A stretch of 64,000 bases of DNA, taken from the NCBI GenBank assembly GCA_028280575.1, contig JANQLN010000010.1, forward strand, positions 18,933 through 82,932, in the 5' to 3' direction. The translations under genes and the position numbers were made by a program. Shown piece after piece: positions 9,167 through 29,323 of this stretch (position 1 is the first letter of the stretch; each line of letters starts with the position of its first letter). The notes under the pieces are model-generated. The model did no database searches and was not told where the DNA came from. It worked only from the letters and a program-made list of their open reading frames with translations. The DNA is from Clostridia bacterium. GTDB lineage: Bacteria > Bacillota > Clostridia > Acetivibrionales > STF1-152.

Positions 9167-10000
9167 CTATATATCAATTTCCCCTGTAAATACTTTAACG
9201 GCAGGTCCAGTCATATATACCCTGTTATTATCCTTTTTCCATTCAATAATCAGGTCACCGCCCAGGAGCTTTACCATCGCCTTCCTTTCACACTTACCGT
9301 TCAGGACAGATGCTACAAGAGCCGCACATGCACCTGTACCACAAGCCATGGTTTCACCTGTTCCACGTTCCCAGACGCGCATTTGCAGGGTTTTTTCATC
9401 AATAACCTTTACAAATTCTGCATTTATCCTTCTGGGAAACAGCCTGTGGGTTTCAATTTTAGGCCCTACGGTTTCCAGCGGAAAATTATCAACTTCATCC
9501 ACATAAGCAACCGCATGGGGATTGCCCATTGATACGCCTGTTACCAGGTATTCTGTTCCTTCAATCTCCAAAGGCTGGGACACAAATCTGTCCATACTGC
9601 TGTTTATAGGAATATTCGACGGCTCAAGCACCGGTTCTCCCATATCAACCTCTACCTGCGAAACCATATCCCCTTTAACAGCCAGCTTTAATTCCTTGAT
9701 ACCGGCCAGGGTATCAATTCTTATAACCTGCCCATCAGTCATTTTTTCGTCATAAACGTATTTTCCAACACATCTGATTGCATTTCCGCACATTTCAGAT
9801 TCCGAACCGTCCGGATTGAACATTCTCATCTTAAAATCGGCTTTATCAGAAGGTAAAATCAAAACCAGTCCGTCGGAGCCAATGCCAAAATGTCTGTCGC
9901 TGACCTTTTTGGAAACCTCAGAAGGATTCTCTACTTTTTCTAAATAGCAATTTACATATATATAATCATTGCCAATACCGTGCATCTTGGTAAATTTCAA
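9167..10000 (-). CDS. dapF: Diaminopimelate epimerase
   Basis: Has the DapF pattern (M/L)[15 protein letters not shown] and both catalytic Cys contexts ([17 protein letters not shown]). The track start at 10006 is a TTG only 2 nt after GGGAGG. The next in-frame TTG at 10000 has 8-nt spacing and gives the canonical MKFTKMHG N-terminus. Confidence 0.9.
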
Positions 10001-10070
10001 AAACAAAACCTCCCTGCCTCAGCTTTTTTCCATTATATTATAACATACCACATCAATGCTGCAAATAACG

Positions 10071-10103
10071 AAAAAAAAGGCCGGGAAGTTTCTACCCTCA
10101 GCC
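10071..10103 (-). terminator. Intrinsic terminator after gdh
   Basis: The minus strand reads GGCTGAGGG tagaaactt CCCGGCC followed by TTTTTTTT (the A-run at 10071..10078 on +). The stem is imperfect but GC-rich. Confidence 0.7.
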
Positions 10104-10170
10104 GTTTAATACTAATTTATTTTATTTAATGTAAAAACACGATTAAATGGAAAATTTAAATATTTGCAGT

Positions 10171-11433
10171 TCAAGGGAAAACCCCGCGTAATTTTTTGGC
10201 ATTTACAATTCTTTCAAGTGCAACCATATATGCTCCTGTCCTCATATTAGTGCTGCTTTTTTCACAGCAGTCCCAGACCTCATTGAATGCCCTGATCATG
10301 ATTTTTTCTAATGTCCTGTTTACTTCATCCTCATCCCAGGTAAGAGATTGTATATTCTGTACCCATTCAAAATATGATACTACAACACCTCCTGCATTGG
10401 CGAGTATGTCAGGGACTATCGTTTTTTCATTTTTAAGCAGTATTTTATCAGCATTGGAAGTAGTTGGCCCATTTGCACCTTCAACAATTATTTTTGCCTT
10501 GACGTCCGCTGCAATTTCTGATGTTATCTGATTTTCCAATGCTGCCGGTATCAGCACATCCACCCGGCAAGTCAAAAGCTCGGTATTGGATATATGTGAA
10601 ACACCCCGGGCCTCATACTCGGCAAGAGTCTTTTGTTCGTTGTTTGAAATATATTCAGTTATTTCATTAATATCCAACCCGCTTTCACAAAACAAAGCCC
10701 CGGAAACATCACTTACGGCAATTATTTTACACCCTTCTCTATATAAAAGCCGGGCAGCGGTCCCTCCCACCTTGCCCATACCCTGTATAGCTACAGTTGT
10801 ACCTATTACAGGCATCCCAAGCCTATGCAGTATTTCCCTGGTCATAAACATTACTCCACGGCCGGTTGCTTCTCTTCTTCCCAATGACCCGCCTATTTCA
10901 ATAGGCTTTCCAGTAACCACTCCGCTTACGGTATACCCCTTGAACATACTGTAGGTGTCCATTATCCAGCCCATTATTTCAGCATCGGTACCAACATCAG
11001 GCGCCGGTATGTCTCTTTCCGGTCCTATCAAAGGAAGTATCATCGCCGTATATCTTCTGGTAAGGTTCTTAAGCTCATTTTTTGACAATTTTTTCGAATT
11101 AACTTTAACCGCACCCTTTCCGCCGCCATAAGGTATATTGACCAAAGCGCTTTTAAATGACATCCATACGGCAAGAGCCTTCACTTCATCCATGTCAACA
11201 TCCTGATGATATCTTATTCCGCCCTTGCAGGGACCCCTGGAACTTGAGTGCTGAACCCTGTAGCCTTCAAATACTTGAATAGAGCCGTCATCCATCTCCA
11301 CGGGAATTGAAACTTTCAATTCCCTTTCAGGATACTTGACCACTTCATAATCCTTTTTACTGAAGGACATCTTCTTTGCTGCCTCTTCAATAATTTCCAC
11401 TACTTCCTTGTAGGGATTGTATTCTTTAGCCAT
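10171..11433 (-). CDS. gdh: Glutamate dehydrogenase (Glu/Leu/Phe/Val dehydrogenase family)
   Basis: 420 aa with the active-site region CKGGIRYH...IPYGGGKGAV and a Rossmann motif AIQGMGKVGG. RBS AAGGAGG. The start is only 13 nt after the stop of the upstream NagA-like gene. Confidence 0.93.
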   Translation of the reverse strand: MAKEYNPYKEVVEIIEEAAKKMSFSKKDYEVVKYPERELKVSIPVEMDDGSIQVFEGYRVQHSSSRGPCKGGIRYHQDVDMDEVKALAVWMSFKSALVNIPYGGGKGAVKVNSKKLSKNELKNLTRRYTAMILPLIGPERDIPAPDVGTDAEIMGWIMDTYSMFKGYTVSGVVTGKPIEIGGSLGRREATGRGVMFMTREILHRLGMPVIGTTVAIQGMGKVGGTAARLLYREGCKIIAVSDVSGALFCESGLDINEITEYISNNEQKTLAEYEARGVSHISNTELLTCRVDVLIPAALENQITSEIAADVKAKIIVEGANGPTTSNADKILLKNEKTIVPDILANAGGVVVSYFEWVQNIQSLTWDEDEVNRTLEKIMIRAFNEVWDCCEKSSTNMRTGAYMVALERIVNAKKLRGVFP

Positions 11434-11446
11434 ACGGCATACCTCC

Positions 11447-12625
11447 TTAACACCTGAATTTTATTTGTCCGTTTACAACTGCCATCTTTATGTTAATATT
11501 TTTATCAAACAATACAATATCTGCATCCTTGCCCACTTCAATACTGCCTTTATTTTCGAGCTTCATTATTTTAGCAGGTGTTGAAGTAATCATTTTCACA
11601 ACGTCCATTAAAGAAATCCCCGCTTTACGGACCATTGTCCTTACAAGCCTGTCGGCAGTTGCTACGCTTCCTGCAAATGCCGACCTGTCCGGAAGCTTGG
11701 CTACTCCATCCTCAACTATTGCTTCCTGTCCGTCGTCAAGGCTTCCAATCCTTGTTTTGCCTTCCGGCATTCCTGCCGCTCTTATGGAATCAGTAACAAG
11801 TGCTATTTTATCGGCGCTCTTTATCTTATATATGAGTTTTAACAAGCTTGCCGGAAGATGCGCCCCATCAGCAATGATTTCCACTGTCATATCATCAATA
11901 AGATATGCACTTTCAACGACACCGGCATATCTGTATGCATTTATCCTTCTGACTGATGACATGCCCGAATAAAGGTGAGTGACATGAGTATAATTATTTT
12001 CGTATCCGTCAAGTACCTGTTCATATATTGCATTGGAATGGGCAATAGATACAACTATTCCTTTAGATGAAACATATTTGCCAAATTCCATTCCACCCGG
12101 AAGCTCAGGCGCCGCACTCCATCTTATTATATCATCGGACCAGTTTAAGATATCGCTGTATTCGTCATAATCCGGATTCCTGATATACCTGGGATCCTGC
12201 GCTCCCCTTTGTTCCATGGAAAAATAAGGTCCTTCAAGGTGAAGTCCGAGCAGGCTGGCTCCATTTGTATTTAATTTTTTTGCTTTTTTGAAAACTTCAA
12301 ATGTTTTTTTCAGCTCTTTATTCGTACTTGTCAAGGTAGTAGGCACCATTGAAGTCGTACCGTGCTTGATATGCATATTTGCGGCGCCAAGATAGGCCTC
12401 CGCGGTACCGTCCATGAAATCATGACCACCCCCGCCGTGGGTATGGATATCAATAAAACCCGGAGACAAATACATATTTTCCGCATTGATTGGATAATAA
12501 TCCTCTGCCGCTATATCTCCTTTTCCTATGCTTGCAATTTTACCATTGTCAACCAGCACATAGCCGTCATTTATAATCCTGTAAGGGGTTAATACCGCTG
12601 CATTATAAAACTTCAATCTCTCCAT
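11447..12625 (-). CDS. N-acetyl-hexosamine(-6-phosphate) deacetylase, NagA-family amidohydrolase
   Basis: NagA-type motifs are present: GFIDIHTHGGGGHDF, LHLEGPYF, SIAHSNA, HLYSGMS, LVTDSIRAAG. The track start GTG at 12634 abuts the SD, so I use the ATG at 12625 (MERLKFYN...), with GGAG 8 nt upstream. Confidence 0.8.
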   Translation of the reverse strand: MERLKFYNAAVLTPYRIINDGYVLVDNGKIASIGKGDIAAEDYYPINAENMYLSPGFIDIHTHGGGGHDFMDGTAEAYLGAANMHIKHGTTSMVPTTLTSTNKELKKTFEVFKKAKKLNTNGASLLGLHLEGPYFSMEQRGAQDPRYIRNPDYDEYSDILNWSDDIIRWSAAPELPGGMEFGKYVSSKGIVVSIAHSNAIYEQVLDGYENNYTHVTHLYSGMSSVRRINAYRYAGVVESAYLIDDMTVEIIADGAHLPASLLKLIYKIKSADKIALVTDSIRAAGMPEGKTRIGSLDDGQEAIVEDGVAKLPDRSAFAGSVATADRLVRTMVRKAGISLMDVVKMITSTPAKIMKLENKGSIEVGKDADIVLFDKNINIKMAVVNGQIKFRC

Positions 12626-12666
12626 GTTCCACACTCCAATCGGTTAACAGGGTGCAAATACTAATA

Positions 12667-14070
12667 TCAATTGCTTTCAGCCGCTTCTTCTATGGCCTCT
12701 CCCAGTACTTCCAGTCCTTCCAGCAAAGCATCTTCGGTAATAACCAGCGGAGGGCACACTTTTATTGTTGCACCAGAACCTACAGGTGCAAAAAGCATAA
12801 CTCCTTTTTCTATACATTTTTTGACTATCTCATGTGCAAGATCAGTGTCAATATCCTTTGTCCCATTCTTTACAAATACCAATCCCCACACAAGTCCTCT
12901 GCCCTGCAGGCTTCCAATTATATCCGGATACTTTTTCTTTAACCGGCCAAAATATTCTTTGCATACGCCACCCAGTTTACAGGAATTCTCTATAAGCTTG
13001 TTTTCAAATATGTATTTTATATTAGCCAGAGCTGCGGCGGCACATACCGGATTCCCCGTATGTGTGCTTGTCATTTGGTTGGGTCCGTACAAATTCATAA
13101 CGTCCGGGCGGCCAATAACAGCCGATATAGGTAGTGAGCTGCTTATACCCTTTCCGCAGCAAACCAGGTCGGGCACTATACCATAATGCTGGAATGAAAA
13201 CAGTTTTCCCGATCTGCCAAAACCGGCTTGTACCTCGTCAAAAACAAGCAGTATGTCATATTGGTTACAAAATTCCCTCAGTATCCGGGCATACCCTGGA
13301 GGCATCATCTGAACCCAACCTCCCTGGAAGGTTTCAGGCATAATCCCTGCAATCTCACCAGGTTTAATATTTTGCTCATTAAGATGATCTAAAAACATGT
13401 TAAAACACTTTTCATCGGAATAATTTTCAAGCTGTTCGTCAGCCCATGAATATTTAAAAGCATTGGGAAACGGAACCTGCTGCATATCAGGGTCTAAGTT
13501 TACTATCCATTCCTTGGCTTTTTCCGAACCGCCGGCCATTTGTGCTCCCATTGTCCTTCCATGAAAATCATCTTCAAAAGTGATGATTTTTATTTTTTTG
13601 CTTCCGCCGGCTTTTTTACCATATGTCCTGCATAATTTAATAGCACATTCGACAGATTCCGCTCCTGTTGTGAGCAGAAAAACTTTTTTAAGGGGTTCGG
13701 GGCATATCTCTGACAGCTTTTTTACCAGTTCTGCCCTTATTTCACTGGGAAAACAGTAGTTGTGCAGCAACCCCCTGCTGACCTGGTTGATTATTGCTTT
13801 GCTTATAGCTTTATTTCCATGACCTGCATTGGCAACCAGCACTCCTGAACTGAAATCTATCCATTTATTTCCATGTTTGTCGGATACATTAAAGTCTTTG
13901 CCTTTGTTCCATACAACAAGAGGCTGACCGGACATTGATAAAGGCTCGTACTCTCTTAACTGTTTCACTGTCTCAAGGGATTCAAGTACAGGTATCTCTG
14001 TTTTAATCTCCCTGTTTTTTGTCTTAACCTTTTCAACCTTCCTTGATACCAAATCAAAACTTTTTGCCAT
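12667..14070 (-). CDS. Class-III (omega/GABA-type) PLP-dependent aminotransferase
   Basis: 467 aa with the pattern TGAESVECAIKL...FHGRT...LLVFDEVQAGFGRSGKLFSFQHYGIVPDLVCCGKGISSSLP, which is the class-III fold with its Schiff-base Lys. RBS GGGAGG. Confidence 0.85.
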   Translation of the reverse strand: MAKSFDLVSRKVEKVKTKNREIKTEIPVLESLETVKQLREYEPLSMSGQPLVVWNKGKDFNVSDKHGNKWIDFSSGVLVANAGHGNKAISKAIINQVSRGLLHNYCFPSEIRAELVKKLSEICPEPLKKVFLLTTGAESVECAIKLCRTYGKKAGGSKKIKIITFEDDFHGRTMGAQMAGGSEKAKEWIVNLDPDMQQVPFPNAFKYSWADEQLENYSDEKCFNMFLDHLNEQNIKPGEIAGIMPETFQGGWVQMMPPGYARILREFCNQYDILLVFDEVQAGFGRSGKLFSFQHYGIVPDLVCCGKGISSSLPISAVIGRPDVMNLYGPNQMTSTHTGNPVCAAAALANIKYIFENKLIENSCKLGGVCKEYFGRLKKKYPDIIGSLQGRGLVWGLVFVKNGTKDIDTDLAHEIVKKCIEKGVMLFAPVGSGATIKVCPPLVITEDALLEGLEVLGEAIEEAAESN

Positions 14071-14244
14071 TCAAAAAACCTCCCATCATTACAAAAATTG
14101 TCAAACAGTATCTTTTAATCAAGCCTTACGATAGCCTATAAAGAGCATTTGCTCATGCTGCATTTTTTAACATTACAGTACAAATTGCTTATAAAATCAA
14201 GGCAGGCACGACAAGATGTTACATTAACTGTGAAAGCCGGCATT

Positions 14245-15453
14245 TTATTCAAAGCCTATATTCATATCTTCATCAAATACCACAAACCTGCCGCCGCTGT
14301 CAGCACTCATTCTTACCGCATTATTTACTGCAACCCCTATAAGGGCCTGTTTAGGCAGTCCTCTTGTTTCTTCCATTTGTGCTATTATCTTTTTCCTTGT
14401 TTGAAGGGCTTCATTTTCATTCATGTGAGACGTAAGCTCTATAATACGCTTTATGTCATTTATCCCCTGCACTATACTGTCATAACCATATCCTACATTA
14501 TCAGCTTCGCCGGGGAAATCCCAACTGTCATACTGTTTGAAGAAATTAGGATTATAATCCTCATATCCATTCTGGTCCGATACAAAATGAGTATTTCTGT
14601 CCTTGTGGTCGGCCCAATACTCTCCCATTGTGCCCAGCAGCATCATTCCCTGGTTGGTCATCGTACTGTTTTTTTCATTATTGACCCATGAGGTTTGAAT
14701 AAAAAATACGGAGCCGTCCTCCCACTCTATGGTAGCTTGAACAGCATCATATGCATCCTTGCCCCTTGCAGGCAAAAACTTCTTTTGCCCAAACGCTACA
14801 AGTCTTTTGGGTTTAAGGCCCGTAATAAAGTAGTAAACGTCTGCATAATGCACTCCAATATATTCAAATGGCGAGCTCTTTTCACACCAGTCCTTGAATA
14901 CATTTAATGCCATATATTTGGGTTCTTCAATCCACGCGTGCCCATGAAGCATTTCGCCCAGATGGCCTTTCCTGTATTTGTACCTGGCAGCTCTAACAGA
15001 CCTGTCATGCCTTTTGTGATAATCTGTCAGCACATAGATGCCTTTTTCATCAGCCGCCCTGATAATTCCACGTGCTTCTTCCACCTTAAGACAGAGCGGT
15101 TTTTCCACCACCACGTGCCTGCCGGCTTCTATTGCAGCCTTTATTACCGGTGTGTGCAGATGATCAGGCGTAGCAACTATTACCAGTCCATTTTCAGGCA
15201 GGTCCTTTATGGCTTCCTTGAACATTTCAGGATATTTTTTATCGGGTTTATACTTTTCCGGGTCCGGATATCCTTTAAAAGCAGGAAACATGCTCTGAAG
15301 TTCACTTATTATGCTTCCGGTCAGTGAGCTTATGGAAATATTGCCCACTCTACCGTACTTTTGCTCCTGGAATACCGTAGGCAAAACCACTTCACGGCTA
15401 ATCATTCCTCCGCCTACAACCAGTACATCCGTTTTTTTATCAAACTTACCCAT
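14245..15453 (-). CDS. Gfo/Idh/MocA-family NAD(P)-dependent oxidoreductase
   Basis: 402 aa with the N-terminal Rossmann motif VLVVGGGMISREV and the family EKP motif (HVVVEKPLCL), plus a C-terminal alpha/beta dimerisation region. RBS GGAGG. Confidence 0.8.
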   Translation of the reverse strand: MGKFDKKTDVLVVGGGMISREVVLPTVFQEQKYGRVGNISISSLTGSIISELQSMFPAFKGYPDPEKYKPDKKYPEMFKEAIKDLPENGLVIVATPDHLHTPVIKAAIEAGRHVVVEKPLCLKVEEARGIIRAADEKGIYVLTDYHKRHDRSVRAARYKYRKGHLGEMLHGHAWIEEPKYMALNVFKDWCEKSSPFEYIGVHYADVYYFITGLKPKRLVAFGQKKFLPARGKDAYDAVQATIEWEDGSVFFIQTSWVNNEKNSTMTNQGMMLLGTMGEYWADHKDRNTHFVSDQNGYEDYNPNFFKQYDSWDFPGEADNVGYGYDSIVQGINDIKRIIELTSHMNENEALQTRKKIIAQMEETRGLPKQALIGVAVNNAVRMSADSGGRFVVFDEDMNIGFE

Positions 15454-15595
15454 TTAACCGCCTCCATTCATCAATATTTATATGAAACAACTTTAAATCC
15501 TGTATTACGGCCTTTGAAGCACACAAAGTTTTTAGTCGGATTTCAAAGGTCATGATGCTTGGAATTATGAAGTTGCATCTGCTTTCAGAGCTCCT

Positions 15596-15615
15596 TACAG
15601 CAATCGATTGCTGTA
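15596..15615. promoter_or_regulatory. Perfect 20-bp palindromic LacI-family operator (O1)
   Basis: TACAGCAATCGATTGCTGTA is a perfect palindrome centred on CG and fits the LacI/CcpA-type pattern nGnAAnCGnTTnCn. It lies between the lacI-family gene stop (15645) and the oxidoreductase start (15453). Confidence 0.75.
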
Positions 15616-15644
15616 GTGATGCAAAGTATTAACTATACCGGCAC

Positions 15645-16694
15645 TCAAATCCTCAAATTGCGTACCGAATTCCTTATGACAAGTGATGGCTCCAGGCTTA
15701 TTGAGATGTCTTCACGCCTGGTTTCGTTCATACTGTCTATAAGTATCCTGCTTGCCAGCCTCCCTGTTTCTATGGAAGGCTGGTTTATAGTGGTCAAAGG
15801 AGGATTAATCATGGAGGATAGCTCCAGGTTGTCAAATCCTACAACCGATATATCTTCAGGTACCTTAAGCCCAAGATTTATAATACGCTGGACTATCCCA
15901 AAAGCTGTCATGTCGTTAACTGCAAAAACAGCCGTAGGACATTTTTCCAGCCTTAACAGCCTGTCAACCATACATTTGCCGTTTTCAAACTCATAGGTAG
16001 TGTTTTCAAATTCCTTTTCAATATCGGATATCATTAAATACTCATCCGTAAAAGCAATATTATTGCGGTAAAGTCCAAGCTTATAGCCTTCAAAAGCTTT
16101 AGACCTTGACTTTTTTGTAAAGGGGGAAGAAATAAATGCAATGTCTCTATGGCCCATTTCTACCAGATAATCAATAGCCATCATTCCGCCTTTCACATAG
16201 TCAAAGCCTATTTTGTTGCACTTTAAATCTCCCGAATCATTATCCAGAACAACCAGCTTCACACCGGATTGCTGTATCTCCTCCAAAAAAACATAGTCTT
16301 CATTAACAGAAGAAAGTATAATTCCTCCTATCTGTTTTTGGCACAATGACTGTATGTATTTTCTTTCGGTTTCAAAATCCCTGAAAGAGTTGCACAGCAG
16401 TATATTATATCCCCTTTTTCTGGCTTCCTGCTCAATTCCCAATACCAACTGGGGGAAAAAAGGATTTGATATATTCGGGACTATAACCCCAATATCCCTG
16501 CTCTCATTCTTTTTCAGCATCCTGCCGATAATATTGGGAGAATAATTAAGCTCTTTTGCTGCCTCCAGTATTTTATTGCGCAGCTCATCTTTAACCGGAT
16601 ACCCGCTATTGCTAAGCACCCGTGAAACTGTTGCGGCGGAAGTCCCTACTTCCTTTGCTATATCATAAATTGTAGTTTTTTTCTTCTTTTCCAT
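15645..16694 (-). CDS. LacI-family transcriptional regulator
   Basis: 349 aa with the N-terminal HTH TIYDIAKEVGTSAATVSRVLSN followed by a periplasmic-binding-protein-like sugar-binding core. Confidence 0.92.
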   Translation of the reverse strand: MEKKKKTTIYDIAKEVGTSAATVSRVLSNSGYPVKDELRNKILEAAKELNYSPNIIGRMLKKNESRDIGVIVPNISNPFFPQLVLGIEQEARKRGYNILLCNSFRDFETERKYIQSLCQKQIGGIILSSVNEDYVFLEEIQQSGVKLVVLDNDSGDLKCNKIGFDYVKGGMMAIDYLVEMGHRDIAFISSPFTKKSRSKAFEGYKLGLYRNNIAFTDEYLMISDIEKEFENTTYEFENGKCMVDRLLRLEKCPTAVFAVNDMTAFGIVQRIINLGLKVPEDISVVGFDNLELSSMINPPLTTINQPSIETGRLASRILIDSMNETRREDISISLEPSLVIRNSVRNLRI

Positions 16695-16716
16695 AATAGC
16701 ATATGTCCTTAATATT

Positions 16717-16736
16717 TATAGCAATCGATTTCTATT
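16717..16736. promoter_or_regulatory. Second LacI-family operator (O2), overlapping the regulator's own -10
   Basis: TATAGCAATCGATTTCTATT shares the core AGCAATCGATT with O1, and I count 16 of 20 positions identical to O1. It overlaps the -10 hexamer of the promoter below. Confidence 0.6.
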
Positions 16737-16762
16737 ATACAACATACTTTATATTAATTCAA
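16734..16762 (-). promoter_or_regulatory. Putative sigma-A promoter of the LacI-family gene
   Basis: The minus strand reads TTGAAT (16762..16757), a 17-nt spacer, then TATAAT (16739..16734), about 40 nt upstream of the ATG at 16694. Confidence 0.6.
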
Positions 16763-16848
16763 GTACATTTTTTAAAAAGCTTACCCTTAAATTACAAATG
16801 AGAACAATAGAACTCGAAAAAATCTGCGCACTGAGGAGGTGTCTTAAG

Positions 16849-16992
16849 TCATTTATTGCCAACACCTGCAGGGGTGCTGCGGTATTCCATTGCAACATCC
16901 TTAATTTTATGGCTCCTGACCCGTTGAGTCAGCCAAAATCCGTTCCCTGCAGGATCCTCTATATCTGCAAGCTTAAATCTCCAATTCCTGAA
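16849..16992 (-). pseudogene. Possible remnant of a VOC/glyoxalase-family gene (C-terminal fragment, no start, upstream stop)
   Basis: My minus-strand translation gives FRNWRFKLADIEDPAGNGFWLTQRVRSHKIKDVAMEYRSTPAGVGNK*. The block ...KLADIEDPAGNGFWLTQ resembles the terminal DPdGN-x-hydrophobic strand of VOC proteins. The frame is closed by TGA just upstream and there is no start or RBS. Confidence 0.3.
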
Positions 16993-17055
16993 TCAAAACT
17001 TTTTCTCAATGCATTTCCCTCCTCATTGATCCTACTGCCTGTTCAATCTGCCTGG

Positions 17056-18525
17056 CTATCTGCTATCAAGGGTATGAGGCACTACATCACAGGTTTCCAT
17101 ATAGAATCTCAAAAGTCGTTCTCTCATCTCAATTAATACATCCTTTAGCGCCGGGTCCTCAATTTTGTTATGCAACTCCATAGGATCTTTTTTCAAATCG
17201 TAAAGTTCATCGGTTTCGTATAATCGCATCACATACTTATATTCTTTCGTACGCACCATTGTCGCCTTTGTGTGTTCAGGCCCTTCGCTGGTCTGCAAGC
17301 TCATACGCGGCCAATAAATCATTTCCGGGCTTCTGCTGCCCTTTGATTCTTTCTCCATACAGTGTTTTTCTTCTTGCAGCCTGCCTCCTTCGGCAAAAAC
17401 AGCATCCCTGTGTTCATCTTTTTCCCCCTTCACAATGGGCAAAACCGATCGTCCAAAATGTGTATGCTTCGGTTCAATCGAAGCCAAAGCTTCAACCGTA
17501 GCGGGAAAATCAATCAGCTCAATCAATGCATCGTTGATATGGGGTTTTACACCTACATCGCCGGGAGGCTTTACAATAAACGGTACATTTATCAAACAAT
17601 CCTCAAAAGTATTCTGTGTCTTTTCTACAAGCCCGTAATCCCCGGTAAAATCCCCATGATCACTTAATACAAAAATGGCCGTATCGTCATATAGCCCTTC
17701 TTCTTTCAGCGCATCGACCAAAAGCCCAAACTGGTAATCAATTCTCGAACACATGCCGTAATAGACCGCTCTCAATTCAGTCCACTTGTTCTCCGTCCAT
17801 GTACAGAGGTTTTGTCTTCCGTAAAGACCTCTAACCATACTGGGCTTCATATCCCAATTTTCAGGAGTAGGAATCCTGTCGGGCACTTTATCCCTTTCTA
17901 TTTGACTATACCAAGGATCTTCAACGGCGTAGTGAGGATGGGGATAAGTAAGGGACAAAAACATGCAGAAAGGCTTATCCTTTGACCCGGTATGGATAAA
18001 ATCAACGGCCTTTCTTATGATATTCCAGTCAGACCCGCCTTCAGGACCATCCCATTCATTTTCTATTTTACCTTTAAAAAATGAATAGTAATTCTCTCCG
18101 CCCATCTCCCCCCGCCAAGATTGTTCAACCTTTACATTGGTCGGCTGAAAATTTGACTGCTTCGGTATTCTGACATCACAATACAAATCCATTTTATCTT
18201 TATCTGCGACCAAATCGTTCTTACCCGCCCACCAAACGTAATAGCCTAATTCCTTCAGGCTCCTTAACAATACCGGCTCTCCTGCACGCATCAAGTGATG
18301 CATGATCCGGTGTCCTCTAACATGGGGATACCAGCCGCTCATAAAGCTGCAGCGGCTGGGTGTGCACACGGGATTCTGGCAAAATGCATTCCGAAACGAT
18401 ACACCATCTTCCTCACATATTTTATCCAAATTCGGTGTAACCGCTGCCGGGTTTCCTAAATGACCCAAGCTATCCGCCCTGAATTGATCCGGATTAAATA
18501 TGACAATATTAGGTTTTTTTTTCAT
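17056..18525 (-). CDS. Sulfatase (formylglycine-dependent, Cys-type), no signal peptide
   Basis: 489 aa. It has the N-terminal metal-site segment PNIVIFNPDQFRAD and the sulfatase signature CTPSRCSFMSG (C-x-P-x-R). There is no hydrophobic leader, so it is predicted cytoplasmic. Confidence 0.88.
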   Translation of the reverse strand: MKKKPNIVIFNPDQFRADSLGHLGNPAAVTPNLDKICEEDGVSFRNAFCQNPVCTPSRCSFMSGWYPHVRGHRIMHHLMRAGEPVLLRSLKELGYYVWWAGKNDLVADKDKMDLYCDVRIPKQSNFQPTNVKVEQSWRGEMGGENYYSFFKGKIENEWDGPEGGSDWNIIRKAVDFIHTGSKDKPFCMFLSLTYPHPHYAVEDPWYSQIERDKVPDRIPTPENWDMKPSMVRGLYGRQNLCTWTENKWTELRAVYYGMCSRIDYQFGLLVDALKEEGLYDDTAIFVLSDHGDFTGDYGLVEKTQNTFEDCLINVPFIVKPPGDVGVKPHINDALIELIDFPATVEALASIEPKHTHFGRSVLPIVKGEKDEHRDAVFAEGGRLQEEKHCMEKESKGSRSPEMIYWPRMSLQTSEGPEHTKATMVRTKEYKYVMRLYETDELYDLKKDPMELHNKIEDPALKDVLIEMRERLLRFYMETCDVVPHTLDSR

Positions 18526-18775
18526 TCTACAATCATCCTTTAATCATAATAATTTTGTACTTATCTATTGCAGACGATACACCGTAACTTTTCAATCCTT
18601 AAACAGGAATGTTTCAAAAAACATTTCGTCTAGTACCTTGAGTCAATGATATCATAAATTCTATTTCTTTGAAACTGCTTTTGATCGAAGCAATTTGCAT
18701 CTTAATCAGTTTCAATTAAGGAGCATACTAATGATACGGAAACAAAAATATTCCAGCATGAAAAAAACCAATCGG

Positions 18776-20344
18776 TCAGTTTAATTTTCTCCATTCCTGG
18801 TTAACCTGCTCTGTTATTTTATCTCCGCCGTTTTTCAGCCATCTTTTCTGCATGTCGTCTAGCGCTTCCAGAGGCAGCTGCCCTACAATAACTTTTATGG
18901 TCGTTTCTTCCACCAATTTCAACAACTCTGCATATTCACCCATTGTGGGCACCATACCGTAAAATTCGTTTAGAGCTGTATATTTTTCGGTCATAGAAAT
19001 CGCTTCAAGTATTTCGCTTTCCACCCACCTTCTGTCCGTTACGCTGATAATTCTTGCAGTCCCTTTCACTGATTGAATCTGACCGTCATACAGTAAATTA
19101 ATCCTATTATTTTCTTGATCATAGGTATAATCTTCCCCCTCAAATCCGAATTGAACCAAAATTGCTCCTTCTTCAGACATCAGATAGTCCAAAAGCATTA
19201 TCACCACCTCGGGCTCCGGTGCTTTAGAGGATATTAAAGCGGATCCGCCGCCGCCGGGCTGTCTTCTTTCAAAACCCCTATGCCCTTTCGGCCCTTTAGG
19301 CGGCATAATCATTTTAAGTTCTGCATCTGGGAATGAAGAAACAAGGGATTGGTTCACAGCATTCTTTTTTGAAACATACCACATATGATGTCCCGATGTT
19401 CCGATGATCCCCCTTGAATATTTTTCTTTGTGATCCTTACCTTTTGTAATGATAAATTCAGGGTCGATTACTCCCTCCTTATACCAGTCGCTAAGCAGTT
19501 CTAAAGCCTGCCTATACTCTCCGGCCATATGGGTAGCTACAACTTGGTCCCCTCTTTTGACCCACCCGTAGGTACCGTGTTTATGAACAGGCAAGCCAAA
19601 GGCTCCCATAATATGACCGAAATTCCAGTCAATTCTGTCTCCCAATCCGTAAGTATTATTCTCGCCGTCACCGTCAGGGTCATCAAAGGTCATGGCTCTA
19701 ATTAAGTCATGGTATTGATCCAAGTCGAAATCTTCACTCATCGCTTTTTCGGCAAAGCCCAGTTTTTCCACCCAGTCCCATCTGGCCAGCACTCCATTTA
19801 CATCGCCGCCGTTGCCGGGCTCAGGTCTTCGCCCTTTTGGTATCGCATATATTTCCCCTTCGGATTTAACATATTTCCAAGCCTCAGGCAAAACCATTTT
19901 TTTTATGTTGGGACCGTATTGGTCAATCAAATCTCCTAACGGTATAATAGCGTCTTGTTCTTTCCAGAACTCAAAATTTTCTTTCTTAAAAATATCCGGC
20001 GGAGTCCCTGCCGCCATGTACAGGTTCAACTTGGTATCATAGTCTCCGACAGGTACGAACTCAACCTCAAACTCTATTCCCGAACGTTTCATGACTTCTC
20101 TTGGAATCGGCATCTCGTTATAGGGCATCGCAGGTTGTTCAAAAGCCTGGGGCATCAAAACCGTAATGGGCCTTGTCTGCTTGATTTTTTTTTCTTCTGT
20201 GCCGATGTCTTGCTGTTCCTTCTTATCCTCTTCGGCTCCAATCGGTCCCCGTTGGTCTGCTTCCCTTTGTCCGCACGCTGTCAACACCAATGCATATACC
20301 AATACAAACACCAAACCTAATGCTATAATACTTGATTTCCTCAT
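18776..20344 (-). CDS. Extracellular solute-binding lipoprotein of a CUT1/Lpl-type carbohydrate ABC importer
   Basis: 522 aa with a signal peptide and lipobox (LVLTAC), then a Glu/Lys-rich linker and a large family-1 SBP body. RBS GGAGGAGG. It follows two permease genes. Confidence 0.88.
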   Translation of the reverse strand: MRKSSIIALGLVFVLVYALVLTACGQREADQRGPIGAEEDKKEQQDIGTEEKKIKQTRPITVLMPQAFEQPAMPYNEMPIPREVMKRSGIEFEVEFVPVGDYDTKLNLYMAAGTPPDIFKKENFEFWKEQDAIIPLGDLIDQYGPNIKKMVLPEAWKYVKSEGEIYAIPKGRRPEPGNGGDVNGVLARWDWVEKLGFAEKAMSEDFDLDQYHDLIRAMTFDDPDGDGENNTYGLGDRIDWNFGHIMGAFGLPVHKHGTYGWVKRGDQVVATHMAGEYRQALELLSDWYKEGVIDPEFIITKGKDHKEKYSRGIIGTSGHHMWYVSKKNAVNQSLVSSFPDAELKMIMPPKGPKGHRGFERRQPGGGGSALISSKAPEPEVVIMLLDYLMSEEGAILVQFGFEGEDYTYDQENNRINLLYDGQIQSVKGTARIISVTDRRWVESEILEAISMTEKYTALNEFYGMVPTMGEYAELLKLVEETTIKVIVGQLPLEALDDMQKRWLKNGGDKITEQVNQEWRKLN

Positions 20345-20414
20345 TATTAACCTCCTCCATTTCTAAAGACATCTTAAAACACTAATCCAACTCAGGGTTT
20401 ATAGATATCACGCT

Positions 20415-21290
20415 TTACCCTTTTAAAGATCCCACCATCACCCCTTTCACAAAATACTTTTGAATAAACGGATAGACAAACAGAATCGGTACGGTTACAA
20501 CAATGATGGTTGTGGCTTTAACTGCTTCCGGCACATCTAGAGTATCCTCTTCCGCTCCGGCTAAAAATTCGGTAACTTGAGAAAGCATTACAATCTCTCT
20601 TAATAATAATTGTAAGACAATTTTACCGCGTTCCTGAATATAGATAAGGCAGAGAAAGAAATCATTCCAATACATGACTGCATACCATAAAGAAATGGTA
20701 GCTATCACGGGCAGGGACAAAGGAAATACGATCTGGAAAAATATCCTATATGTCCCCGCCCCATCTATGGTTGCAGCTTCTTCCAAGTCATCTGGCATAT
20801 TTTGAAAAAAGTTTCTGGTAATGATAAGATTAAAAGGCATAATAATTGTCGGCAGTATAAGCGCCAACCTGGAATTAATTAACCCAAGGTTCTTAACCAC
20901 AAGATAAGTGGGAATGATGCCTCCGCTAAACAACATTGTAAAAACAACCATCAGTGTAAATACGGTTTTACCCGGTAAAAACTTTTTAGATAAAGAATAG
21001 GCCATTATTGCTGTTAAAAACACACTTGATATTGTTCCTAAAACGGTCACCAATATTGAATTCTTAAAAGCATTCCATATGGAAATAGAACTCAATACCC
21101 TTTCATAGGCTGCTGTCGAAAAACCGTTGGGAGTGAGAAAGAAACCTCCTTTCAATGCTCCCTCGGGGCTGCTTAACGACAGGTTAATCAAATACACAAA
21201 AGGATACAACATGGTTATGGCCAATAAAATCATAAAAATAACGTTTCCTGAATCAAAAATTCTCTCTCCCCAGCTTTTTTTGTTTATCAT
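20415..21290 (-). CDS. Carbohydrate ABC transporter permease (LplC/MalG-like)
   Basis: Six TM segments and the EAA loop DDLEEAATIDGAGTYRIFFQIVFP. I use the ATG at 21290 (MINKKSWGERIF...) with GGAGGAAG upstream rather than the track start at 21338, which would overlap the upstream gene. Confidence 0.9.
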   Translation of the reverse strand: MINKKSWGERIFDSGNVIFMILLAITMLYPFVYLINLSLSSPEGALKGGFFLTPNGFSTAAYERVLSSISIWNAFKNSILVTVLGTISSVFLTAIMAYSLSKKFLPGKTVFTLMVVFTMLFSGGIIPTYLVVKNLGLINSRLALILPTIIMPFNLIITRNFFQNMPDDLEEAATIDGAGTYRIFFQIVFPLSLPVIATISLWYAVMYWNDFFLCLIYIQERGKIVLQLLLREIVMLSQVTEFLAGAEEDTLDVPEAVKATTIIVVTVPILFVYPFIQKYFVKGVMVGSLKG

Positions 21291-21303
21291 AAATGCTTCC
21301 TCC

Positions 21304-22272
21304 TTACCAAATACCCGATTGACCAAACCATTTGGCAATTTTATTTGTCACAATGACCATTATAAGTCCCACAACGCCCTTAAAGAGTCCCACCGCAGTG
21401 GCAAAACTATACTGGGATTGTGTCAGTCCGACCCTATATACGAAAGTGCCGAAGACATCGGCAATATCATACACCGCTGGATTGTATAAAACCAATATCT
21501 GTTGAAAACCTACGTCCAAAATACGGCCTACTCTCAAGATCAACAGCACGACTATCACGCTTCCTATGGAGGGCAGAGTAATATGCAAAGCTTGCTGCCA
21601 GCGGTTGGCGCCGTCCACAATTGCTGATTCATATATCTCAGGATTTATACTTGTTATTGCAGATAAATATACAATTGTACCCCAGCCGCTATTTTTCCAA
21701 ATTTCCGTGATAACCAGAACGGAACGGAACCATCTGCGATCTGCCAGGAAAAAGACCGGTTTTCCTCCAAACAGCTCAATTAAATAATTTACTACACCGG
21801 TACTGGGAGATAATATGACATAAGCAATACTGCCTACGATAACCCATGAAATAAAATGGGGAAGATATACGATGGTCTGTATTGTTCGTTTAAACACCAG
21901 CTTTCTCAATTCATTCAGTAAAAGCGCTAAAATAATAGGGGCAGGAAAACCAAAAATCAACTTGTACAAACTAATGATCAACGTATTGCGAAATACATTC
22001 CAGAACTCGGGCGAATCGAACAATCTTACAAAGTGTTTGATCCCAACCCACTCACTGCCATGTATACCTCTAAAAGGGCTAAAATCCTTAAAGGCAATTG
22101 AAATTCCATACATGGGAGCATATTTGAACACTATAAAATAGATGAGTCCCGGAAGCAACAATACATAAAAGGCTCTATACTTCCAAACAAGTTTCATCAT
22201 ATGATCCATAGAGGATACAAACTTTTCAACATAACCATATTTTGTCTCTATACCAGCCTTTTCTAAAGACAC
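21304..22272 (-). CDS. Carbohydrate ABC transporter permease (LplB/MalF-like)
   Basis: 322 aa, polytopic, with the EAA-like loop EIYESAIVDGANRWQQALHITLP. The GTG start at 22272 is preceded by AGAGAGGTG. Confidence 0.88.
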   Translation of the reverse strand: MSLEKAGIETKYGYVEKFVSSMDHMMKLVWKYRAFYVLLLPGLIYFIVFKYAPMYGISIAFKDFSPFRGIHGSEWVGIKHFVRLFDSPEFWNVFRNTLIISLYKLIFGFPAPIILALLLNELRKLVFKRTIQTIVYLPHFISWVIVGSIAYVILSPSTGVVNYLIELFGGKPVFFLADRRWFRSVLVITEIWKNSGWGTIVYLSAITSINPEIYESAIVDGANRWQQALHITLPSIGSVIVVLLILRVGRILDVGFQQILVLYNPAVYDIADVFGTFVYRVGLTQSQYSFATAVGLFKGVVGLIMVIVTNKIAKWFGQSGIW

Positions 22273-22296
22273 CGCTTACACCTCTCTTTGATTTAG

Positions 22297-22327
22297 CCGT
22301 TGAACCCGACGCCGCCGGGTTCAACGG
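22297..22327 (-). other. Intercistronic GC-rich stem-loop between the GH2-like gene and the transporter genes
   Basis: CCGTTGAACCCG (22297..22308) and CGGGTTCAACGG (22316..22327) form a perfect 12-bp stem with a 7-nt loop. On the transcribed (minus) strand no U-tract follows, so it is not a canonical terminator. Confidence 0.6.
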
Positions 22328-22356
22328 TTTGTTTACGAACAGCTTAATACATCAAT

Positions 22357-25300
22357 TCAGGGCTGCGGTCCGGTATCCTCGGTTAACATATACCGCAGCA
22401 GCTGATCAAACATATAGGCGCTTTCCGGTCTGTCCAGATTATAATACAGACTGGAAACCATAAGCGTTCCTTGCCCTTTTTGCGCTTCAAACAAATAGGA
22501 TAAGGGGCGATTTCCCTTCTTTTCAGCTACAGCGCCATCCTCACTGCCCTCTATAGTCCGCCAGTAATCAATAACCCGTATAATAGGCGTTACGTTATAA
22601 GTATCCCATTTGGCGGCGTCCAGATAGACAGCCGTACAGCCCTCCGGTTTGTCACTGGTATGAACATTGTGTATCAAATCAACCAGACCGAAATCCATAT
22701 AACCCTCATGGGGAATATTTTTCATAGCAGGATGGGTGCCGTCAATCACTTCACCCCAAGTTACTCTCTCCGCATAAAATCCGCTGGTTGTCATATAGGT
22801 AGCCCATTTCCTGGGCACTCTGCGTGGATTTTGTGCAAATCCCCAATCCTTCTCCTTTTCTTCGTATACGCCTCTTGCAAATATGAACGCTTTACCTCCG
22901 TTATTGATATGCTTATCCAGAACCTCAGATTGATGATCCGTAATAAAAATATCCGCCGCCGATGGCGGGTTCGTCGTTACAAAAGGATATTTGCTTTTGA
23001 TCTGCCCTGACAGACCGATATCCTTAATATCCACGACTATCTTTTTATCAGTATGACTCATATACGTATCCGGATAAACCCAGTACAGCCATTCATTATC
23101 TATATTTACCGATGTACTCGTGAACTGCCCCACTAATTTGTATCGTTTTCCCACCATAACTTCCGGCAATACCAAACTGACCTTTGCCAGCTCTGTCAAG
23201 TCTCCGTTTTTCAGGGAAATATTCTCTGCAGCCCCTCTACTGATTACCTCACCGGTATCCTCCTCTTTAAACGACCATTCAAGCCGTCCTCCGCTGATAT
23301 CCTGTAATCCCGTATGATGTATATGGATGCTTTCGTTAAAGGCTCCTTTACTGAAAAACTGCCTTTCTTGGTACTTCGAAACCGGAAGCAGCACTGTTTC
23401 ACCATTGGATTTTAAAAATTCCTCCGCCGTCGTATTGGTTGGGGCATAGAAATCATCCAATACCCCCATCCTAAGTAATCCGGTATCCTGTGCAAGCCAC
23501 ATGATATAACCATCCATAGTTTCATAGGCTGTCCTGTACCACTCTATACCATATTTTCTGGTCATTTTCTGAAGCTCTCCGGATTTTTCCGCAAATATCG
23601 GCAGCAAATCGGTTAACCCGCTCTTTGCCGCAGATGCTTTCGTATAGTTTATCTGCCAGGGTGTCAGCGGAGAGTTCCAATATTTCTCTTCCAGCCTAAT
23701 ATCCGGATATGCCGACCAATGACCATATTCGTGCCTGAAACAAGGAATATTCTTAACGTCACTATTATGGGTAATCACATCGCACCATTTCCTTACGGCC
23801 GGGCTGTCCGGTCCCCCGGAAGACGACATAACAAATCTTGTGTCGTCAAAAGCCTTAGCCGTATCATAGGCATATTTCATGATGGGATGCACATTAGTGC
23901 CTGTCTGTTCATTACCCATAGACGTAACCATTTTGGAAGGACTATTCAAATCCCGGCGGATGATATGATCCCACATATCCCTTCTAACTATTTCGCTATA
24001 GGGATTTTTCTTGTAATAGGTGCCAATAATCCCGGCTTCTTGTTGTATGAACAAACCCAGTTCGTCGGCCACATCAAGAAATTCCGGCGCCGGAATGCTG
24101 CTGTGGAGCCTGATATAATTAAAACCATAATTTTTCAGCTGCTGAAGATTGCTTCTAATCACATTCCTGTCAGTCTCGGGGGACAAACTGTTTGGGTAAA
24201 CGTTTAAAAAGCCCGTGCCCCTAACATAAAAGAGTTCATTGTTAACGTATAGTTTACCGTGCGATGTGCTTAATTTTCGCATGCCAAAATAGTCTCTCAA
24301 CCCATCCTTTCCCCCTTGGCTTTCAATCAAAATTTCTGCCTCGTATAACTTGGGATGCTCCGGGTGCCACAGCTCCGCACCGGACATATCCACCTCAAAT
24401 GCCACCTCAGCTACCGAACTCGCAGGAACAAAAGCGTTAGCATCCGCACTCTTAAAATCTCTCCCGTTGTCTTTAATCTTTGCCTGGAGCCTGATCTCTC
24501 TGTCCGCAGTATCAAGGTTTTCTACCCACACTTTGACGGCTGCTTTTTGATTGTCAATATCAGGTTTCATGAAAAAGCGCTGTATCCTGACTTTAACTGT
24601 CTGCTCCACTTCCACGCTTCTGAACAGACCGGAAAAGAAATTCATCCTGTTATAACCGCTGCCCATTATCCTTGCAAAAAAATCTTCATCAATCTTAACA
24701 ACCAGTGTATTTTTCTGACCTATCCGGGCAATATCGGTTATATCATATGCAAAAGGCACAAAAGCACCCTTATGATAACCGACATATTGACCATTAAGCC
24801 ATATTTTTGCTGCCGGCAGCACTCCTCCGAACTTTATAAATATAGGATGGTCGACCTTCCAGTCGGCCGGGATGTCAAAGGCTTTCTTATACCACGAAGG
24901 CGGGTAAGCTGCCGCCTTGATTTTCTTGAACCTCAGACTAGCTGCCGGTATATGGGATAAATCATCTCTATAACCGGCTGCCATAAGGTTGCCGGGAACA
25001 GCAATCTTTTCGGAAAATGCAGTAGTTCCCTCATACCATTTTTCTTGTTCGCCTTGGTCCCAAGGGTCGTCTTTAAATTCAAAAATGCCGTCAAGTTTGA
25101 GGTTTTTTCTGACGTCGTGCACCGGTAGTTCCGGATTAACAATTGCAGGCATATACTTAGGGTAATTGCTGGGGTCCCACTCCCAAGCGATTTCATTTAT
25201 TCTTTTCTCCCCTAATGCATAGTTATAAATAGACAACTCGTCAATACTGCCCAGCCATGCACTTCTATCAAGGCTGTTCCCCACTGTAAACGCTCCTGAA

Positions 25301-26496: not shown

Positions 26497-26517
26497 TTTT
26501 ACCCCTCCATCTTGACA

Positions 26518-26557
26518 GATTTTTTGTTCTAATCCTATAGCTTTAGAACAAAAAATC
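26518..26557. promoter_or_regulatory. Perfect 15-bp-arm inverted repeat in the 5' UTR of the GH2-like gene
   Basis: GATTTTTTGTTCTAA (26518..26532), a 10-nt spacer, then TTAGAACAAAAAATC (26543..26557), an exact reverse complement. It lies 22-61 nt upstream of the start codon at 26496 and downstream of the predicted promoter. Confidence 0.8.
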
Positions 26558-29310: not shown

Positions 29311-29323
29311 TTTTCATTTCCTA

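Follow-up and report, generated by a model that had tools for sequence, protein, structure and literature searches.

A LacI-controlled clostridial operon encoding a candidate transdeamination module for amino sugar-type compounds, with a conserved aminotransferase-oxidoreductase pair at its core

Gene content and regulatory sites of the operon

Within a 64,000-nucleotide stretch of DNA from Clostridia bacterium (GenBank assembly GCA_028280575.1, contig JANQLN010000010.1, positions 18,933 to 82,932; hereinafter, the window, to which all coordinates refer unless another locus is named), five consecutive genes on the minus strand (10171-16694) combine a LacI-type repressor with an oxidoreductase, an aminotransferase, a deacetylase and a glutamate dehydrogenase, and could encode a transdeamination module for an amino sugar-type compound. 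The repressor of the LacI/GalR family (349 aa, 15645..16694; PF00356 at 1e-15 along with Peripla_BP_1/3/4) is followed by a Gfo/Idh/MocA oxidoreductase (GFO, 402 aa, 14245..15453; PF01408 and PF22725), a class-III, fold-type I, pyridoxal phosphate (PLP)-dependent aminotransferase (AT3, 467 aa, 12667..14070; PF00202, 283.7 bits), NagA (11447..12634; TIGR00221, 281.5 bits), which probably begins at the ATG at 12625, where the database protein P0121 also starts, and would then be 392 aa long, and glutamate dehydrogenase (GDH, 420 aa, 10171..11433; ELFV_dehydrog_N and ELFV_dehydrog). An original prediction, made from the sequence alone, had placed a lacI-family gene, an operator, an oxidoreductase, an aminotransferase, a NagA-family gene and gdh in this order, and the coordinates and domain matches confirm it.

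The predicted distance of 13 nt between the nagA stop and the gdh ATG is likewise correct, and gdh is preceded by an AGGAGG ribosome-binding site. The gap between AT3 and nagA is 32-41 nt long, and a spacer of 174 nt (14071..14244) separates GFO from AT3. The sole convincing terminator, as originally claimed, lies after gdh (10071..10103, minus strand) and, by sequence and fold, consists of the hairpin GGCUGAGGG...CCCGGCC followed by U8; terminator-like matches within the operon occur only at the chance level (12 versus 8.8 +/- 2.7 expected). A riboswitch or leader RNA was rejected, given that an Rfam search of 9800-17200 returned no element and that the spacers, including that between GFO and AT3 (z-score +1.15), showed no significant RNA structure. 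In agreement with the predicted lack of NagB and of a kinase, no NagB (PF01182), kinase or phosphotransferase system (PTS) was detected among the larger annotated open reading frames (ORFs) of the window, a result that pertains to the window and not to the whole genome.

Upstream of lacI, a scan located a sigma-70-type promoter (16734..16762, minus strand; TTGAAT, 17-nt spacer, TATAAT) with 10 of 12 matches. Two putative operators, both palindromes with a central CG, were found: O1, a perfect 18-bp palindrome ACAGCAATCGATTGCTGT between lacI and GFO (15597..15614), and O2, ATAGAAATCGATTGCTAT on the coding strand (16718..16735), a second copy with 3 mismatches that abuts and overlaps the -10 hexamer, implying autoregulation. 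These are the only two operator matches in the 64 kb, where 0.01 per window is expected by chance. The motif TAG(C/T/A)AATCGATT(G/A)CTA is retained a short way upstream of GFO in seven related loci (L001, L002, L005, L007, L008, L010, L081) and also occurs upstream of lacI in L010 and L012, so that the operator of the original prediction gained a second predicted site and a conserved motif. The repressor falls below every NCBIfam equivalog cutoff, and its orthologues (45-64% identity) stand before GFO in related loci. Judging from gene content and spacing, lacI-gfo-at3-nagA-gdh is best described as one autoregulated, LacI-repressed transcription unit, and all three functions of a transdeamination triad, namely, an aminotransferase, an amino-acid dehydrogenase and a carbonyl reductase, are encoded within this one cluster.

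A conserved aminotransferase-oxidoreductase pair

A scan for AT3 in species-representative genomes and metagenomes, supplemented with six further loci, yielded 170 loci encoding orthologues of 51-78% identity; the two collections overlap in part, with duplicate loci such as L019 and L101. The loci come from Clostridia, Planctomycetota, Verrucomicrobiota, Omnitrophota, Firestonebacteria, Elusimicrobia, Aerophobetes and other groups, and the AT3-GFO pair is present also in Chloroflexota. Neighbors were counted using tblastn and clustering of all genes adjacent to AT3. A GFO gene lies within 4 kb of AT3 in 111 of the 170 loci, which is a lower bound because many contigs end near AT3, and 89 of these 111 encode the same GFO subfamily as the window. 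Other recurrent neighbors are an AEC-family permease (29 loci), a cupin of about 110 aa (24), an ELFV dehydrogenase within 6 kb (22), an M20 ArgE/DapE-family deacylase (14) and NagA (5). In a reciprocal check that started from a GFO homologue in an Anaerolineae genome, the next gene encoded a class-III aminotransferase.

The complete order lacI-GFO-AEC-cupin-AT3-nagA-gdh was found in four Bacillota loci (L001, L002, L010, L091), and a further locus, L092, ends inside nagA; the proteins encoded in the complete-order loci are 82-84% (GFO), 75-78% (AT3), 62-67% (NagA) and 74-77% (GDH) identical to those of the window. In these relatives, the AEC-family (Mem_trans) permease and the cupin occupy the position between GFO and AT3 (8380-9915 in L010) that corresponds to the 174-nt spacer of the window, where tblastn detected no remnants of either gene. 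This comparison indicates that the window has a pared-down operon from which the dedicated AEC permease and the cupin were lost; its copy thus has no dedicated transporter. Identification of the cupin as KdgF was unsupported, with only weak generic cupin matches, including cupin-type glucose-6-phosphate isomerase. The four-gene block of the original prediction is accordingly conserved as a whole in four loci, and the wider comparison reduces it to GFO-AT3, which is the conserved core, with nagA-gdh as accessories of one Bacillota clade.

Two further types of loci show different company. In the Omnitrophota-type loci (L020, L052, L054, L063, L064, L072, L076), the order is AT3-M20 deacylase-GFO, the last being a 356-aa iolG-like type, and the set is flanked by a CoaC-like flavoprotein gene and three small conserved genes, the first of them read by eye as trmD. 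In the Anaerolineae locus L178 (12996-14740), genes of the PF02522 aminoglycoside-3-N-acetyltransferase family and of Amidohydro_2 are located about 1.2 kb downstream of GFO-AT3.

AT3 misses every NCBIfam equivalog cutoff, the best match reaching 319 bits versus 552 and the 4-aminobutyrate (GABA) aminotransferase 236 versus 507; the best matching families are of the acetylornithine/GABA type. The closest relatives with solved structures (1e-65 to 1e-54) comprise a broad-specificity amino-acid racemase from an archaeon, 7vno, which was deposited as a hypothetical 4-aminobutyrate aminotransferase, an Ala/Ser racemase and the putrescine aminotransferase of Escherichia coli. In the alignment of the 170 orthologues, the catalytic K307, the DEVQ motif (D278, Q281) and R172 of the FHGRT motif are invariant; R172 corresponds to R141 of GabT, which binds the distal carboxylate of glutamate or 2-oxoglutarate. 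The canonical C-terminal Arg of class-III enzymes (xxRxxPPL) binds the alpha-carboxylate of glutamate/2-oxoglutarate or of alanine/pyruvate. In its place, all 170 AT3 orthologues have Lys (K437 in the window), and all four closest solved structures have Arg at the equivalent position; furthermore, Gly replaces the Glu/Asp of EPxQG(E/D)xG in all 170 members. These invariant features define AT3 as a distinct, uncharacterized class-III subfamily, with Lys instead of the canonical Arg as its signature.

Oxidoreductase, deacylases and glutamate dehydrogenase

The N-terminus of GFO reads DVLVVGGGMI, and the EKP motif is seen within VVVEKPL. Its orthologues in Clostridia are 75-84% identical, and the same subfamily is represented in Planctomycetota and Chloroflexota. 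The folds nearest to the AlphaFold model of GFO (predicted local distance difference test score 84.6) are those of inositol, scyllo-inositol/L-glucose and levoglucosan dehydrogenases, 1,5-anhydrofructose reductase and RgNanOx (TM 0.6-0.7, 14-20% identity). With TIGR04380, GFO scores far below the equivalog cutoff for the myo-inositol 2-dehydrogenase IolG (78.5 versus 355 bits). The modeled fold thus identifies GFO as a probable sugar or cyclitol oxidoreductase of unassigned specificity. The automatic name given to many GFO orthologues by the Joint Genome Institute, 'D-galacturonate reductase', was treated as a lead only.

NagA exceeds the TIGR00221 equivalog cutoff of 225.65 bits, matches NagA structures in the Protein Data Bank (PDB) at 1e-50 and contains the HxH metal motif within HTHGGGGHD. 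The Arg that aligns with R227 of E. coli NagA, the 6-phosphate ligand, lies in AYRYAG, following a 4-aa insert, VRRI. Clostridia contain many NagA homologues of 65-70% identity, and in three of the four contexts examined (L174/175, L176, L177), homologues of 66-68% identity adjoin nagB; the homologue in Caldicoprobacter faecalis stands alone. The segment VRRINAYR(Y/F)AG is common to the AT3-linked and nagB-linked copies (including P0142) and to all homologues compared, and the two kinds of copies are equally similar to NagA of the window. A specialized paralogue was rejected on these grounds: the shared motif and identity level make this protein the ordinary NagA of the clade, a firmer identity than the 'NagA-like' label it had been given. 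No nagB was found in the window or in the AT3-linked loci, as far as these loci extend. A pattern in which NagB accompanies NagA elsewhere, and AT3, GFO and GDH accompany it here, would fit the idea that NagB is replaced.

In Planctomycetota and Omnitrophota, an M20 ArgE/DapE-family deacylase, which is not homologous to NagA, adjoins AT3 and GFO; for instance, L019 has the order M20-AT3-GFO, with a GFO 63% identical to that of the window. The presence of an unrelated deacylase beside AT3-GFO provides independent support for a functional need for deacylation.

Other genes were observed near nagA in the genomes compared. In L176 (230-11609), a cluster encoding a TetR regulator, a 355-aa GFO, a dihydroorotate/dihydropyrimidine-dehydrogenase-like protein and 2-Hacid_dh flanks nagB-nagA-PIG-L, with an FGGY kinase and LarA also present; in L010 (14524-21361), the same TetR-GFO-2-Hacid_dh cluster directly follows nagA-gdh. 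This cluster may represent another uncharacterized pathway related to amino sugars.

GDH possesses the motifs GPCKGG and GGVVVSY; the Lys and Ser of GPxKGG and GGVxVSY select glutamate in ELFV dehydrogenases. Its score is below the equivalog cutoffs (498 versus 620 bits), so that the glutamate-type assignment comes from the motifs and the ELFV domains, with the subfamily unassigned. Orthologues of 71-77% identity adjoin nagA or AT3 in L001, L002, L010, L091 and L081. The 22 loci with an ELFV dehydrogenase fall into at least five arrangements: nagA-gdh after AT3, in the clade of the window; GFO-AT3-GDH followed by a glycoside hydrolase of family 2 (GH2), without NagA and, by ORF coordinates, with a 4-nt overlap of AT3 and gdh (L081); cupin-GDH-AT3-AEC, seen in about a dozen Firestonebacteria loci, where gdh comes right before AT3; AT3-GFO-gdh, in planctomycete-type loci (L123, L146, L150); and LarA-GDH-GntR-ABC-AT3 (L085), where ABC denotes an ATP-binding cassette transporter. 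Glutamate-type motifs (GPxKGG and GGVxxSY) are present in all nine of the AT3-linked ELFV dehydrogenases examined. Genomes carry one or two copies of such a gene, so that the recurrence appears to lie far above chance, and the recurrent adjacency supports a role of GDH in recycling the amino acceptor.

In the relatives with longer nagA/gdh intergenic spacers, these are occupied by GC-rich palindromic elements resembling repetitive extragenic palindromes, such as GGGGCGACCACTGGCCGCCC and GGGCGACCAGTGGTCGCCCC (L010 11401-11662 and 14268-14523; L002 6054-6233); such elements are absent from the compact operon of the window.

Substrate hints from neighboring genes

Hints at the substrate were drawn from AT3 loci of lower identity (60-72%). 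In L086/87, AT3 is accompanied by an IclR regulator, mannonate dehydratase, D-mannonate oxidoreductase (414 bits versus an NCBIfam cutoff of 281), a ribose-type ABC transporter, Amidohydro_2, 2-keto-3-deoxy-6-phosphogluconate (KDPG) aldolase and a PfkB-family kinase that, from its context, is likely to be a 2-keto-3-deoxygluconate (KDG) kinase. L088 combines GntR, ABC, Amidohydro_2, UxuA and the same short-chain dehydrogenase/reductase (SDR) as L086/87, and L090 a LacI repressor, an SDR of the D-mannonate oxidoreductase type, GFO, cupin and AT3. Elsewhere, AT3 occurs with a GntR-FCD regulator, a UxaA/GarD-type dehydratase, a binding protein and Amidohydro_2 (L095), with an IolO-like 5-keto-L-gluconate epimerase, an amidase, ABC and Amidohydro_2 (L082-84), near a LarA-family 2-hydroxyacid racemase (L085, L093) and near a beta-glucuronidase-like GH2 (L081). 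The AEC permease family mostly carries carboxylates. No sugar kinase or PTS was found within the operon in any of the 170 AT3 loci.

The sugar-acid contexts indicate amino sugar acids, such as hexosaminuronates or 2-amino-aldonates, the products of which would enter the fructuronate/mannonate/KDG route; by gene neighborhood, they point to amino sugar acids rather than glucosamine 6-phosphate (GlcN-6-P). The sugar-type setting assumed in the original prediction, as opposed to a GABA or ornithine setting, is upheld by regulators, transporters and neighboring enzymes of carbohydrate or sugar-acid type. We considered 2-amino-aldonates, hexosaminuronates, GlcN-6-P, 5-amino-hexonate lactams and inosamines: none could be established, no single gap-free pathway that fits all cluster types could be derived, and our confidence in any specific substrate is low.

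Next to the operon, on the minus strand, lies a polysaccharide-utilization-like locus (17056-30871) with two S1 sulfatases with SGSH_C (one at 17056-18525), a Cache/AraC regulator, a CUT1 ABC transporter with a 522-aa binding protein and a 1415-aa GH2 with Laminin_G_3/Laminin_G_2 (LamG-type) matches. The suggestion that this locus supplies the substrate found no support: it contains no operator and is not beside the operon in relatives. The GH2 is 25% identical to the GH2 beside AT3-gdh in L081, and PDB matches of the GH2 and the sulfatase are unspecific. On the other side, the housekeeping genes dapF and dapL are located directly downstream of the operon.

Farther away in the window, a MocR-type regulator (32043-33401, plus strand; GntR helix-turn-helix fused to an aminotransferase class I/II domain) lies beside a gene for an energy-coupling factor-type riboflavin transporter S component (PF07155), and a second sugar-type cluster (45260-54186, plus strand) encodes the ATPase, permease and binding protein of a ribose-type ABC system along with a 680-aa GHL6/GH42M-like hydrolase, an RraA-like aldolase, a D-2-hydroxyacid dehydrogenase and a PF04199 'cyclase', a member of a family of formamidase-like amidohydrolases. 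A GHL6/Alpha_L_fucos protein like that of this cluster is encoded near nagA-nagB in L174.

A candidate transdeamination module and its alternatives

We tentatively propose, at slightly less than an even chance, that the products of the operon form a transdeamination module that is balanced in cofactors and acts on an N-acetylated compound of the amino sugar type. From the gene complement, we infer an order of enzymes, a cosubstrate and a direction: a deacetylase, NagA here and the M20 ArgE/DapE-type enzyme in other phyla, would free the amine; AT3 would move it onto 2-oxoglutarate, yielding a keto or aldehydo sugar; GDH would restore 2-oxoglutarate, giving off ammonium and NAD(P)H; and GFO would spend this reducing equivalent on the carbonyl of the sugar skeleton. 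The net conversion, R-NHAc to R-OH, acetate and ammonium, would be redox-neutral. The neighboring genes favor an anionic hexosamine or an amino sugar acid as the most likely compound over a simple amine. A broader proposal, that the AT3-GFO pair, with GDH and deacylase add-ons, constitutes an undescribed, phosphorylation-free pathway of many phyla that converts amino sugars or amino sugar acids to hydroxy sugars and ammonium, is, in our estimation, somewhat less likely than not; candidate substrates would be hexosaminuronates, 2-amino-aldonates and free hexosamines from cell-wall or polysaccharide necromass. The closed module of deacetylation, transamination, cosubstrate recycling and keto-sugar redox conversion envisaged in the original prediction keeps the operon itself, the AT3-GFO pairing and the recruitment of GDH in its favor, and is weakened by the ordinary nature of NagA and by contexts of sugar-acid rather than GlcN-6-P type.

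Several observations weigh against the proposed module. At most AT3-GFO loci, GDH and a deacylase are both missing from the vicinity, and an ordinary NagA of the GlcNAc-6-phosphate deacetylase type fits poorly with kinase-free, permease-linked, sugar-acid AT3 contexts. In L010 and L002, nagA and gdh are set off by spacers of 135-260 nt, the nagA-gdh spacer itself measuring 135-152 nt, and a 10/12 promoter-like site precedes gdh in the 152-nt spacer of L010, so that gdh is perhaps only loosely attached; the claim that GDH is hard-wired into the LacI regulon thus draws on the tight spacing in the window and the recurrence of GDH near AT3, and is called into question by these two relatives. Under one alternative, GFO-AT3 would be the sole dedicated unit, with nagA and gdh as downstream housekeeping genes reached by read-through and GDH merely gaining from proximity. 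The spacers, the lack of specialization of NagA, the dapF and dapL genes that follow directly in the window and the TetR-GFO cluster that flanks nagBA in L176 and adjoins nagA-gdh in L010 all speak for it. Nevertheless, GDH adjoins AT3 in at least five unrelated arrangements and at least three phyla, including the overlapping genes of the NagA-free L081, the non-homologous M20 deacylase takes the equivalent place in other phyla, and the gaps of 13 nt and about 40 nt in the window and of about 25-30 nt in L091 argue for co-transcription, so that we consider a dedicated unit limited to GFO-AT3 unlikely, if by no means negligible. A bypass of NagB, the scheme of the original prediction, in which NagA makes GlcN-6-P, AT3 converts it to a 2-keto-hexose-6-phosphate, GFO reduces the latter to fructose, glucose or mannose 6-phosphate and GDH recycles 2-oxoglutarate, draws strength from a canonical NagA with a retained anion-binding Arg and from orthologues that adjoin NagB in L174-L177, with no NagB at the AT3-linked loci or in the window. 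However, AEC permeases or ABC systems and sugar-acid enzymes take the place of a sugar kinase or PTS across the 170 loci, most AT3-GFO pairs lack NagA, and three enzymes would do the work of the one-step NagB with no obvious benefit; such a bypass seems rather improbable.

Three further alternatives concern the direction of the pathway, the reaction of AT3 or the type of substrate. Pairs of GFO and an aminotransferase are classical in amino-sugar biosynthesis (NtdC/NtdA, WbpB/WbpE, GnnA/GnnB), and the Omnitrophota genes, AT3-M20-GFO, sit among housekeeping genes such as trmD, which could indicate biosynthesis and counts against the catabolic module. In such a 'hydrogen-borrowing' amination, GFO would oxidize a hydroxyl of a sugar or cyclitol and AT3 would aminate the ketone with glutamate that GDH makes from ammonium, and the resulting amino sugar or aminocyclitol would serve the envelope or leave the cell via the AEC carrier, carriers of this family being capable of export; a class-III aminotransferase aminates fructose 6-phosphate in azasugar clusters (PMC8382821). 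The azasugar three-gene cluster, however, has a phosphatase, a different dehydrogenase and other host taxa, no glycosyltransferase or nucleotide-sugar genes are linked to AT3, and the contexts are catabolic, with regulators of the LacI, GntR and IclR families, ABC systems for uptake, NagA, UxuA/UxuB, and KDG kinase and aldolase, which leaves biosynthesis with a small probability. The missing alpha-carboxylate Arg and the nearest solved relatives, which are amino-acid racemases, also weigh against a transaminase: AT3 could be a PLP racemase, epimerase or lyase acting on an amino sugar acid, as the closest solved structures (broad-specificity amino-acid racemase, Ala/Ser racemase, Ile 2-epimerase), the Lys for the carboxylate-binding Arg and Gly for the switch Glu in 170/170 members, and the LarA racemase-family genes in L085 and L093 might suggest. 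An enzyme of this kind would give the recurrent GDH adjacency no rationale, a carbonyl product would suit the NAD(P) oxidoreductase so often paired with AT3, and the FHGRT Arg typical of 2-oxoglutarate-dependent class-III enzymes is invariant, so that we judge this very unlikely. Slimmer still is the chance that AT3 acts on a non-sugar amine (GABA, ornithine, beta-alanine, a diamine or a taurine-like compound), with GFO as the aldehyde reductase: automatic annotations label AT3 a 4-aminobutyrate aminotransferase, its best NCBIfam matches are of acetylornithine/GABA type and the M20 partner is ArgE/DapE-like, but all equivalog cutoffs are missed by a wide margin, the regulators, transporters and neighboring enzymes are of carbohydrate or sugar-acid type, and the GFO fold matches sugar and cyclitol dehydrogenases.

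Relation to known systems and implications

Parts of the proposed transdeamination module have parallels in known pathways. In the roc regulon of Bacillus subtilis, the class-III ornithine aminotransferase RocD is co-regulated with the GDH RocG, and in ectoine degradation, DoeB, DoeD and DoeC provide a deacetylase, a class-III aminotransferase and a dehydrogenase in series; these systems differ from the operon in acting on amino acids or ectoine, and they are not known to include a GFO enzyme or a sugar-type regulator. In canonical GlcNAc catabolism, the NagA family is shared and orthologues are paired with NagB in related genomes, whereas here NagB is missing at the locus and AT3, GFO and GDH stand in its place.

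The closest parallel in logic is the route by which taurine becomes isethionate, encoded by ald-tpa-sarD of Bilophila wadsworthia (PMC6386719) and by Toa with IsfD/TauF in Chromohalobacter, Klebsiella and Bifidobacterium (PMC6616044). As in the proposed module, one cluster supplies an aminotransferase that makes a carbonyl from the amine, an amino-acid dehydrogenase that restores the amino acceptor with release of ammonium, and a reductase that uses NAD(P)H to form an alcohol from the carbonyl. The taurine clusters differ in handling a C2 sulfonate, in relying, in Bilophila, on pyruvate as acceptor and on Ala dehydrogenase instead of GDH, and in having an iron alcohol dehydrogenase or SDR, not a GFO enzyme, as the reductase, the likeness to the AT3 cluster resting on the described logic; a deacetylase and LacI-type sugar regulation are also lacking.

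The oxidative chitin pathway processes N-acetylglucosaminate (GlcNAc1A) by the deacetylase OngB and the deaminase OngC to KDG (PMC9537276, PMC12017989). It shares with the AT3 loci the sequence in which an amino sugar acid is first deacetylated and then deaminated toward KDG/KDPG, with UxuA, KDG kinase and KDPG aldolase present at some of these loci, and differs in its D-aminoacylase-like deacetylase and in its known hosts, aerobic marine Proteobacteria. To our knowledge, it includes no GDH or GFO step.

The azasugar genes gabT1-yktc1-gutB1 likewise couple a class-III aminotransferase, acting on C2 of an open-chain keto-sugar, to a dehydrogenase, but they are biosynthetic, include a phosphatase and occur in other taxa, and no Gfo-family enzyme is mentioned in their description (PMC8382821). 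This three-gene cluster was rejected as the identity of the operon because composition and taxa differ. Its dehydrogenase is a Zn-dependent alcohol dehydrogenase.

The original remark that no described pathway has this composition holds insofar as no description of the gene combination was found, and it is qualified by the transaminase/dehydrogenase/reductase logic already known for taurine (PMC6386719). The full-text literature searched covered amino-sugar transaminases, the glucosamine transaminase/glucosone route, glucosaminate aminotransferase, and hexosaminuronate and inosamine catabolism, and contained no such description. The principle of transdeamination itself is not new; its sugar-type application, the AT3 subfamily with Lys for Arg and the phylum-spanning AT3-GFO pair appear to be undescribed.

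In sediments, soils and the gut, organic nitrogen has one of its major reservoirs in amino sugars, and the known routes for their deamination are few, namely, NagB or AgaS acting on phospho-sugars and PLP lyases acting on glucosaminate. If the proposed module is real, it would offer an alternative to NagB-type and lyase-type deamination, the genes for which are present in Clostridia, Planctomycetota, Verrucomicrobiota, Omnitrophota, Firestonebacteria and Chloroflexota. A natural amine-to-alcohol (or alcohol-to-amine) cascade of biocatalytic interest would likewise result, and a large family now mis-annotated as 'GABA aminotransferase' or 'predicted dehydrogenase' would gain a function. A transaminase-based, cofactor-balanced route of this kind would fill a gap in models of carbon and nitrogen cycling.

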